From: an uncultured Spirochaetales bacterium
GTDB taxonomy: Bacteria; Spirochaetota; Spirochaetia; CAYLLE01
DNA length: 62,673 nucleotides
Direction: 5' to 3'
NCBI GenBank assembly: GCA_964384485.1
Contig: CAYLLE010000006.1
Location: 1 to 62,673 of the forward strand
The position numbers and the translations under genes are program-made. Below are positions 11,753 through 61,830 of this stretch, piece by piece. Every line of letters starts with the position of its first letter. Within the stretch, counting starts at the first letter, position 1. The notes under the pieces are model-generated. The model made no database searches. It was not told the DNA's origin and was given only the letters and a program-made list of their open reading frames with translations.

Positions 11753-11805
11753 GAGATCAGTATATCCCGCATCACCATGATTGCGAAAGGGATGTCTCTC
11801 CATCT

Positions 11806-11895
11806 CAGCAATTCTCGGTGACCACATTCGCATTAAAATTTATAATTTGTTTTATTACAAGCAATTACATAAATCGGGATCACCGAGAATTGCCG
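11806..11895 (-). mobile_element. MITE-like hairpin element, subfamily B (90 bp)
   Basis: Arms CAGCAATTCTCGGTGA / TCACCGAGAATTGCCG; reverse complement closely matches 31495-31584. Confidence 0.88.
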
Positions 11896-11916
11896 TTTTT
11901 CCGCGAAAAAAATATG

Positions 11917-12008
11917 CGGCAATTCCCGGTCAACCCGATCTAAATTTATATATTATATTAAATTATGGCCGCTTCTCAATCACAATAGGAGTTGACCGGG
12001 ATTTGCTG
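11917..12008 (+). mobile_element. MITE-like hairpin element, subfamily A (92 bp)
   Basis: Arms CGGCAATTCCCGGTCAAC / GTTGACCGGGATTTGCTG; together with the B copy it is flanked by direct repeat TCTCCATCT (11797-11805, 12009-12017). Confidence 0.88.
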
Positions 12009-12030
12009 TCTCCATCTTTAATACCACACA

Positions 12031-12050
12031 AGGAGTTGACCGGGAATTAC
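12031..12050 (+). repeat. Remnant right arm of subfamily A element overlapping a promoter -35
   Basis: AGGAGTTGACCGGGAATTAC; TTGACC-18 nt-TAAAGT-6 nt-ATG 12072. Confidence 0.65.
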
Positions 12051-12071
12051 AGTATCCTTTAAAGTACTTCC

Positions 12072-16423
<4,352 letters not shown>

Positions 16424-20102: not shown

Positions 20103-20192
20103 CGGCAATTTCCGGGGATTCCGATGTAAAGATATGTCCTTCATGGTGAGTTTTGTTTTTTTTAGTGCGTTGGTAATCCCCGGAAATTGTTT
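20103..20192 (+). mobile_element. MITE-like hairpin element, divergent subfamily C (90 bp)
   Basis: Arms CGGCAATTTCCGGGGATT / AATCCCCGGAAATTGTTT; CCGATGTAAA follows the left arm as in the other copies; right end decayed. Confidence 0.75.
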
Positions 20193-27903: not shown

Positions 27904-28134
27904 ATCCCCTCCCCGGAGATCTTTCTCCCGGACGGAAATAGCCGGGCAATGCCCCGCGTAATTTAGAAGACGCCGTATATCTCGATAATATCATAATGCC
28001 GATATACGCAATTATTTACATTAAAAAAAATTATAAGTCTTAATACGATTTTTGCCGCCGGTAATCGCTCTCTTCAAGGTTGATCAGTTGATACGAATAA
28101 GCTATTTTGAAGATAACCCATGAGGAGGAATAAA

Positions 28135-31494: not shown

Positions 31495-31584
31495 CGGCAA
31501 TTTCCGGTGATGCAGATTTATGTAATTGCTTGTAATAAAATAATTTATAAATTTTAACGCGAATGTTGTCACCGTGAATTGCTG
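31495..31584 (+). mobile_element. MITE-like hairpin element, subfamily B, with 9-bp target-site duplication
   Basis: CGGCAATTTCCGGTGA...TCACCGTGAATTGCTG flanked by CTTCACCTC at 31486-31494 and 31585-31593. Confidence 0.92.
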
Positions 31585-43684: not shown

Positions 43685-43771
43685 CGGCAATTCCCGGTCA
43701 GCCAGATTTAAATTTATATACGTAATTAGGGCCACTTCTAAATTAAAAAAAGCGTTGACCGGGAATTGCTG
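43685..43771 (+). mobile_element. MITE-like hairpin element, subfamily A variant (87 bp)
   Basis: CGGCAATTCCCGGTCAGC...GTTGACCGGGAATTGCTG; interior alignable to 11917-12008; no clear 9-bp TSD. Confidence 0.87.
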
Positions 43772-61735: not shown

Positions 61736-61830
61736 GACTGTTGCGAAAATTGTTGTTTCAGTGAAAAATTGAACATAAATCCTTACAAGAAAACGGTTTT
61801 TAAGGACCAACAACAATTTTCGCAACAGTC
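61736..61830. mobile_element. Second MITE-like element (95 bp, perfect 22-bp terminal inverted repeats)
   Basis: GACTGTTGCGAAAATTGTTGTT (61736-61757) and its exact reverse complement (61809-61830), between convergent genes. Confidence 0.7.

Follow-up and report, generated by a model that had tools for sequence, protein, structure and literature searches.

Between two divergent genes of an uncultured Spirochaetales bacterium lies a pair of short inverted-repeat units, placed back to back around a 21-bp spacer and enclosed by one 9-bp target duplication. This arrangement raises the question of whether two elements joined here as a miniature composite transposon with a passenger, as a preliminary description of this DNA proposed, or whether the pair is itself an established mobile unit. 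The locus was analyzed within the window (the whole 62,673-nt stretch), the genome it comes from (G000), a second genome of the same genus (G001), further genomes of the class and contigs of public sequencing runs. Most likely, the 203-bp unit represents the complete version of an abundant, non-coding repeat family with four inverted repeats (IRs): a MITE that an ISNCY-type DDE transposase would mobilize in trans, that would give rise to solo units and hybrids by deletion, and that at this locus landed in an older relic.

Anatomy of the 203-bp element

When coordinates were re-derived from the sequence, the B/spacer/A anatomy and the flanking TCTCCATCT copies of the preliminary description proved exact (Table 1), as did the placement between divergent genes, whose products carry GNAT and HATPase_c domains and a PPDK_N domain, respectively. 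The outer termini of both halves read CAGCAA inward and the inner termini CGGCAA, and each half has its own IR pair, with GGTGATC in B and GGTCAAC in A. The outer repeats Bo and Ao are complementary at 15/20 positions and the inner ends over 22/26 bp. Bo carries a TCTC variant, for which Bi has a matching, compensating change. Across 53 copies of two species, the spacer equals the IRs in conservation (column mean 0.95), and the unit folds into two long hairpins (z = -5.5), with zero Rfam families matched at gathering level. No significant resemblance links the interior of A to that of B, whichever way round the two are compared (72/1000 and 298/1000 shuffles), a result that neither shows nor excludes a sister origin of the halves. 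A dif-like reading of the AT-rich core was dropped by eye; the matching XerC arm is absent.

Table 1. Features of the locus, other family copies in the window and insertions into half A elsewhere. Promoters are predicted from consensus matches only.
Feature	Position	Strand	Remark
Four-IR MITE, 203 bp, full-length family form	11806..12008	+	
Half B, 90 nt	11806-11895	-	read as the reverse complement
Half A, 92 nt	11917-12008	+	
Left copy of 9-bp target duplication TCTCCATCT	11797..11805	+	missing in empty allele
Right copy of 9-bp target duplication TCTCCATCT	12009..12017	+	
Bo, outer IR of half B	11806..11825	+	CAG end
Bi, inner IR of half B	11876..11895	-	CGG end
Spacer, 21 bp, TTTTTCCGCGAAAAAAATATG	11896..11916	none	
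Ai, inner IR of half A	11917..11936	+	CGG end
Ao, outer IR of half A	11989..12008	-	CAG end; holds outward-facing TTGACC hexamer
Degenerate relic of older A end, 35 bp	12018..12052	+	44 bp including TCTCCATCT; missing in empty allele
GNAT + HATPase_c gene, 654 aa	9788..11752	-	
PPDK_N (PEP-synthetase-like) gene, 872 aa	12072..14690	+	
TTGCGA, predicted native -35 of PPDK-like gene	11781..11786	+	
Predicted hybrid promoter	12036..12065	+	relic -35 TTGACC, 18 nt, native -10 TAAAGT
Predicted GNAT-kinase promoter	11759..11787	-	TTCGCA-17-TATACT, intact
Predicted inward sigma-70 promoter	11952..11979	-	TTGAGA-16-TATAAT, 11/12 match
Solo B	31495..31584	+	intact CGG inner end; exact 9-bp duplication CTTCACCTC
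Degenerate solo A	43685..43771	+	78% to A; no clear duplication
Half A cut by contig start	1..73	+	flank matches B end on contig C233
Insertions of the IS with CAT(A/C)GCTGTCCAAAA ends in the centre of half A	G000 C53:21551, C21:38696, C219:36; L026:2583 (G001 C44)		

Insertion into an older relic

In contigs of four public runs, position 11796 is joined straight to 12053, the shorter side of the joint measuring 246 letters in X8, 179 in X9, 43 in X12 and 36 in X10. This empty allele, found in four of the eight runs (from four coded studies, some possibly of one campaign), holds neither B nor A, neither TCTCCATCT nor the relic. Run X1 carries the filled allele, and runs X4, X6 and X7 do not cover the site. 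Because the empty allele lacks both halves, an insertion of B followed by one of A does not apply, and the earlier proposal that the 203 bp inserted as one unit through the outer ends of B and A holds. The architecture, two short units on either side of a spacer and each bounded by IRs, is in line with this, as is the joint inheritance of B-end and A-end variants: the variant at position 9 of the B end goes with the A haplotype of the copy (24/27 vs 15/46; the copies are kin, and the p-value overstates the linkage).

The preliminary description had predicted an empty allele with a single TCTCCATCT, whereas the empty alleles found carry none. Since TCTCCATCT and the relic are both missing from them, the 203-bp copy entered an earlier insertion of its own family. 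The relic, overlooked earlier, directly follows the right duplication, and the left TCTCCATCT copy is likely part of it too, being absent from the empty allele. An intermediate allele with the relic alone was not seen among the run contigs. At the orthologous site, G001 carries no element and is too diverged (69%) and rearranged to reveal a duplication; a short PPDK-like 5' remnant follows its GNAT-kinase gene (L013:4370-4440, G001 C6), other genes replacing the rest.

The course of events would thus begin with an older A-type insertion that split the PPDK-like promoter, continue with its decay to 44 bp, predicted to supply a replacement -35, and end with the landing of a 203-bp copy in this remnant. 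In the empty allele, TTGCGA stands 17 nt from TAAAGT (12060-12065), itself 6 nt before the PPDK-like start codon; in the filled allele it is 256 bp further away, and the predicted hybrid promoter ends at that same distance from the start. The predicted GNAT-kinase promoter has a G001 equivalent (TTGCAA-17-TATACT), and the predicted inward promoter faces the GNAT-kinase gene, with the spacer and B in between. Genome-wide, the outer ends show no excess of downstream -10 boxes or hybrid promoters (11/193 vs controls 8-22). Contig depth in the runs was not taken as copy number or expression, and contigs of X8 and X9, which are RNA libraries, cannot show transcription.

In each of the divergent genes, a -10 match lies about 6 nt ahead of the start codon (11759-11787 and 12060-12072), and their transcripts are possibly leaderless; their -35 hexamers overlap back to back at 11781-11787. 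An in-frame ATG inside half B (11753-11833, minus strand) lengthens the GNAT-kinase frame by 27 codons, from 654 to 681 aa; this start is likely an annotation trap, because the G001 orthologue has 654 aa.

A high-copy family in two genomes of one genus

The preliminary description treated the doublet as a local event. A search for the doublet or its spacer elsewhere, however, found it at dozens of sites, so that it is no one-off. BLAST with the 203 bp gave 47 full-length matches in G000, and an end-based catalogue lists 46 intact doublets with the same 21-bp spacer; the closest copies are C50:4367-4569 (98.5%) and C8:42773-42974 (97.5%). An 8-10-bp target duplication with at most one mismatch accompanies 31 of the 46 (9 bp in 25 of these), the other 15 having no clean duplication; the duplication at 11797/12009 is therefore not due to chance. 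About 41 further doublets are split across contig ends: when the 454 free ends were compared, an Ao and a Bo end from different contigs had identical 9-10-bp flanks in 41 pairs, where chance would give roughly 0.4 9-mer pairs. Three of these pairs repeat 97-bp hybrids, and the few that involve internal copies may be rearrangements or misjoins.

The family comprises 330 loci in G000, and because 154 of the 472 contig ends of the assembly fall in it, it accounts for much of the assembly's fragmentation. Scorable copies lie mostly outside long open frames (55/60 vs 251/1000 random sites). The inner ends are CGG in 79/83 Ai and 67/76 Bi, and the outer ends CAG in 176/195 Ao and 135/178 Bo. Highly degenerate B-like units of the same family occupy positions 20103-20192 and 27996-28069 of the window. 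Elsewhere in G000, a doublet is followed by an extra A half (C132:5803-6096). At 61736-61830 of the window, the arms of a perfect 22-bp inverted repeat enclose 51 bp of AT-rich sequence (GACTGTTGCGAAAATTGTTGTT); together they may form an unrelated MITE.

At four places (Table 1), the AT-rich centre of half A is interrupted by a different insertion sequence (IS), presumably IS4-like, with CAT(A/C)GCTGTCCAAAA ends; one of these places (L026) holds a broken DDE_Tnp_1 transposase. The same junction is a loose end in runs X6 and X7, and two further such ends (G000 C182, L028) lie elsewhere than in the centre of half A. It is possible that this second IS targets the MITE.

In G001, 64 loci were examined as a sample, best matches first; they comprise nine doublets, 13 A units, 15 B units, two hybrids, three other paired forms and 22 unpaired ends, the latter being truncated relics. 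An older, diverged A lineage with a GGTCAATACC end (L182, L190, L202, L214 and L215) occurs there both in a 201-bp doublet and solo. The old copies at L190, L203, L207 and L215 are bordered by similar sequence (AATCGAAT), which may reflect a target preference or another repeat. Among 401 class-level genomes, end-motif counts are high only in G000 and G001; those of G359 (35), G205 (8) and G305 (7) proved to be IS ends or relics. The pattern of a two-IR unit matched zero loci in viral contigs, zero in metagenome contigs and 12 in genome contigs, all of one assembly (G041, whose coordinates are identical to those of G001, was counted once with it). Most of the 51 single-end metagenome matches are due to chance. 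Two other short elements, L126:356-550 (G164) and L122:318-465 (G305), have the same CAGCAATTCCCGGTGA end and no inner IRs, and are possibly independent MITEs of the same IS group.

Solo halves and hybrids as probable derived forms

Both outer IRs are repeated in the same direction within the element, which opens three routes of loss that would all preserve the old duplication: a solo A would result from deletion between Bo and Ai, a solo B from one between Bi and Ao, and a 97-bp hybrid from one at the shared AAATTTATA. G000 contains 30 solo A (four of them contig-edge fragments; 23 with a duplication), 15 solo B (5 with a duplication) and 12 Bo-Ao hybrids (9 with a duplication), the solo halves measuring 90-92 bp. 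On an A-half tree of 55 doublet and 31 solo rows, built from about 70 columns without the inner 20 bp, solo A copies are scattered among the doublets, with 15 changes of label, of which well-supported branches force 7, and a single solo A clade is rejected (p-AU 1.1e-9 with about 70 columns); a single solo B clade is not rejected on a tree of about 70 columns (p-AU 0.06). The deepest A lineage (L182, L214) includes both forms. Additionally, 4 of 10 solo A copies in G001 start with a B-type CAG..T9 end, and all 12 solo A copies of the youngest G000 haplotype start with CAG..C9, like the B end of that haplotype. By these sequence patterns, solo halves and hybrids look like repeated deletion products of the doublet, and A and B, described earlier as different subfamilies, behave as the halves of a single element. 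The mixing of solos with doublets on the tree could also stem from gene conversion among copies, and identical solo A copies could reflect a burst of solo transposition instead of repeated deletions. Contig breaks at crossover points were dropped as a sign of in-place deletion; breaks also occur at ordinary variant positions.

Speaking against deletion as the only route, three solo B copies keep a CCG inner end together with exact duplications (G000 C6:31495 and C9:8701; L192), which suggests that the inner CGG ends occasionally act as transposition ends.

A likely mobilizer among ISNCY-annotated insertion sequences

A single-end metagenome scan recovered two complete elements, L060 (1759 bp) and L070 (1684 bp), with CAGCAATTCCCGGT ends and an ORF of about 440 aa that has sub-threshold matches to DDE_Tnp_1 and DDE_Tnp_1_assoc and no NCBIfam match. 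Of its plasmid homologues, 3/17 are annotated ISNCY, and the Nostoc homologue WP_234711115.1 has the CAGCAATTC motif just upstream of the transposase. Homologues occur in 30 of the 401 class genomes; complete CAG-ended elements were delimited at 15 of 40 transposase loci, seven with 9-10-bp duplications (at most one mismatch). Thus, ISs with CAGCAATTC ends exist in other genomes, where they measure 1.4-2.1 kb, make 9-bp duplications and encode an ISNCY-annotated DDE transposase. From the common ends and duplication length, we infer that the partner transposase of the MITE is of this ISNCY type; it would act in trans on the two outer CAG ends. That different ends work together, to which the preliminary description drew attention, is unremarkable, since the related ISs have only about 9-16 terminal bases in common between their own ends and across members. 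The complete CAG-ended ISs delimited at the 40 loci all lack an inner copy of the IR with fewer than 5 mismatches in 16, and the inner IR pair appears peculiar to the 203-bp MITE.

No intact partner transposase was found in G000 with PF01609, PF13808, a protein search and tblastn with the L060 transposase, and all that was detected in G001 is a C-terminal remnant of 58 aa, which lacks a clear family end. The two assemblies are 88.7% and 94% complete, and incomplete assemblies often lack multicopy ISs. The DDE_Tnp_1 matches examined in G001 belong to another IS, with CATAGCTGTCC ends, and its PF13808 matches are unrelated fragments. Internal homology identified no parent IS, the matches to fetched IS loci being terminal ones of 14-21 nt. 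The subgroup of the CAGCAATTC-ended ISs may be ISMae2, for which no description of the ends was found in the literature searched.

Origin of the doublet and alternative explanations

The preliminary description had the composite form at this locus with a chance passenger, two MITEs of different subfamilies joining at or shortly before insertion, and held that such pairs mobilize genes. One outer duplication does surround both halves, and both also occur solo with duplications of their own; the same spacer nevertheless recurs in 53 copies of two species, as a fixed part of a high-copy family. Moreover, no same-contig pair with a matching duplication spans more than 223 bp (searched up to 30 kb, within the limits of the fragmented G000 assembly), no distant exact pair exists among the 454 free ends, and none of the 64 G001 loci forms a gene-enclosing pair, the unpaired ends there being relics. 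Joining at this site is accordingly very unlikely. In place of variable passenger DNA or genes, there is one fixed 21-bp spacer, and, of the two units that a composite would mobilize independently, solos with duplications exist, most of them apparently deletion-derived, the three solo B with an inner end aside. A composite origin of the family founder is a possible reading of these data. In this scenario, two independent MITEs of about 90 bp from sister ISs once landed in inverted orientation, 21 bp apart; they then moved as a composite, CGG arose at the inner ends by drift, and the pair took the role of master element. This account, to which we give slightly less than an even chance, is compatible with trans mobilization of a four-IR MITE and differs from it on origin only. 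It draws on the separate IR pair of each half, on the autonomous relatives, whose lack of inner IRs argues that these were acquired, on the complementarity of the inner ends, on the solo B copies with an intact CCG inner end and exact duplication (vs CGG at only 3/195 Ao ends), and on a tandem pair present today: at G000 C93:1-265, two family copies stand 8 bp of target duplication apart as a present-day dimer, and the tandem joint 12008->11806 recurs in run X6. Against it, no ancestral solo lineage was found outside doublet diversity, and a fold-back duplication or a captured end-to-end junction would yield the same four IRs; the comparison of the interiors weighs neither way. An extended version is unlikely, in our judgment: that a two-MITE composite with a 21-bp passenger was born once, became the master element of its family in the genus, still with four usable ends, and regenerates mobile monomers, and that inward-facing end pairs could carry host genes. 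If true, it would be a miniature natural record of the full life cycle of a composite transposon.

The hairpins could instead mark a REPIN/BIME-like or structured-RNA repeat, kept for its structure and moved by an HUH (RAYT) enzyme. Compensated Bo-Bi cells do exceed permutations (10, of 5 types, vs 2.1 and 1.6), yet they reduce to about four events beside 76 uncompensated cells, with 6/10 from one three-copy clade. The pattern fits occasional template switching between IR arms better than selection on structure; the arms of each half would sometimes copy each other, by a process known elsewhere (PMC8604942, PMC7202029). With 9-bp duplications, no PF01797 match in the incomplete assemblies of G000 and G001 and no Rfam family, such a repeat is highly improbable. 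Equally improbable is the notion that solos and hybrids are chimeras that arose in the library or in the assembly of a repeat-rich metagenome: 154 of the 330 family loci touch a contig end and some contigs break exactly at crossover points, but G001 has both forms too, contigs of public runs contain hybrid joints or loose ends, and many solos and hybrids lie mid-contig with exact duplications. The preferred explanation remains that of a four-IR MITE moved in trans.

Comparison with known systems

The element is 203 bp long and non-coding, with terminal IRs, a fixed-length duplication, dispersed copies and both filled and empty alleles, and autonomous relatives with the same ends and duplication occur in other genomes, not in G000. 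It thus has the testable features of a MITE and, judging from its ends, is likely mobilized in trans by an ISNCY transposase; it is an ordinary mini-transposon of odd build and no unique composite with genes aboard. This adds a MITE family and its likely partner to the poorly classified IS group ISNCY, and a unit that amplifies whole and sheds its halves is an architecture for which no description was found: no bacterial MITE with a four-IR, unit-amplified build emerged from the literature searched, most subscription journals lying outside its scope. The locus is also a candidate case of promoter remodelling, the decayed end being the predicted source of the -35 for a split promoter. A new mechanism is not required for any of these findings.

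Similar to the ISNCY-annotated ISs (L141, L148, L150, L151, L159 and the Nostoc element), the MITE has the CAGCAATTC terminal motif and a 9-10-bp duplication, and the closest members (L060, L070, L100) have up to about 16-21 terminal nt in common with it; unlike the MITE, they are 1.4-2.1 kb long, encode a transposase of about 440 aa, have single IRs and are intact in neither G000 nor G001. REPINs and BIMEs are doublets of palindromic units that form hairpins in intergenic DNA, as this element does; in contrast to them, no Y1/RAYT transposase was found with it in the two genomes, and it has DDE-type duplications and ends. REPINs and BIMEs are not known to make DDE-type 9-bp duplications.

Among prokaryotic MITEs, Correia, ERIC, RUP and MITEAba12 are short, non-coding, IR-bounded and intergenic (PMC3184786; PMC10969869), and the 203-bp element also resembles them in its target duplication, high copy number, hairpins, promoter-like hexamers and internally deleted forms. 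It differs from them by a second, near-perfect inner IR pair, head to head around a fixed spacer, so that either half is a MITE-like unit itself. Spirochaete genomes are reported to be MITE-rich (PMC11602168), and the catalogue of that report may already list the family. In MITE-bounded composites, namely TIME-COMP (PMC13367494) and integron mobilization units (PMC3184786), two small IR-bounded units likewise flank DNA that is moved in trans as one; these consist of two copies of one MITE with variable cargo genes, whereas the halves of the present unit differ, the cargo is a fixed 21-bp spacer and the whole has been amplified to dozens of copies. Plant MITE multimers, whose nested forms arose by independent insertions (PMC5172404), offer a parallel in that a MITE adjoins or lies inside another, as the copy at this locus sits in an older relic of its family; compared with the multimers described there, the doublet itself is the amplifying unit here.
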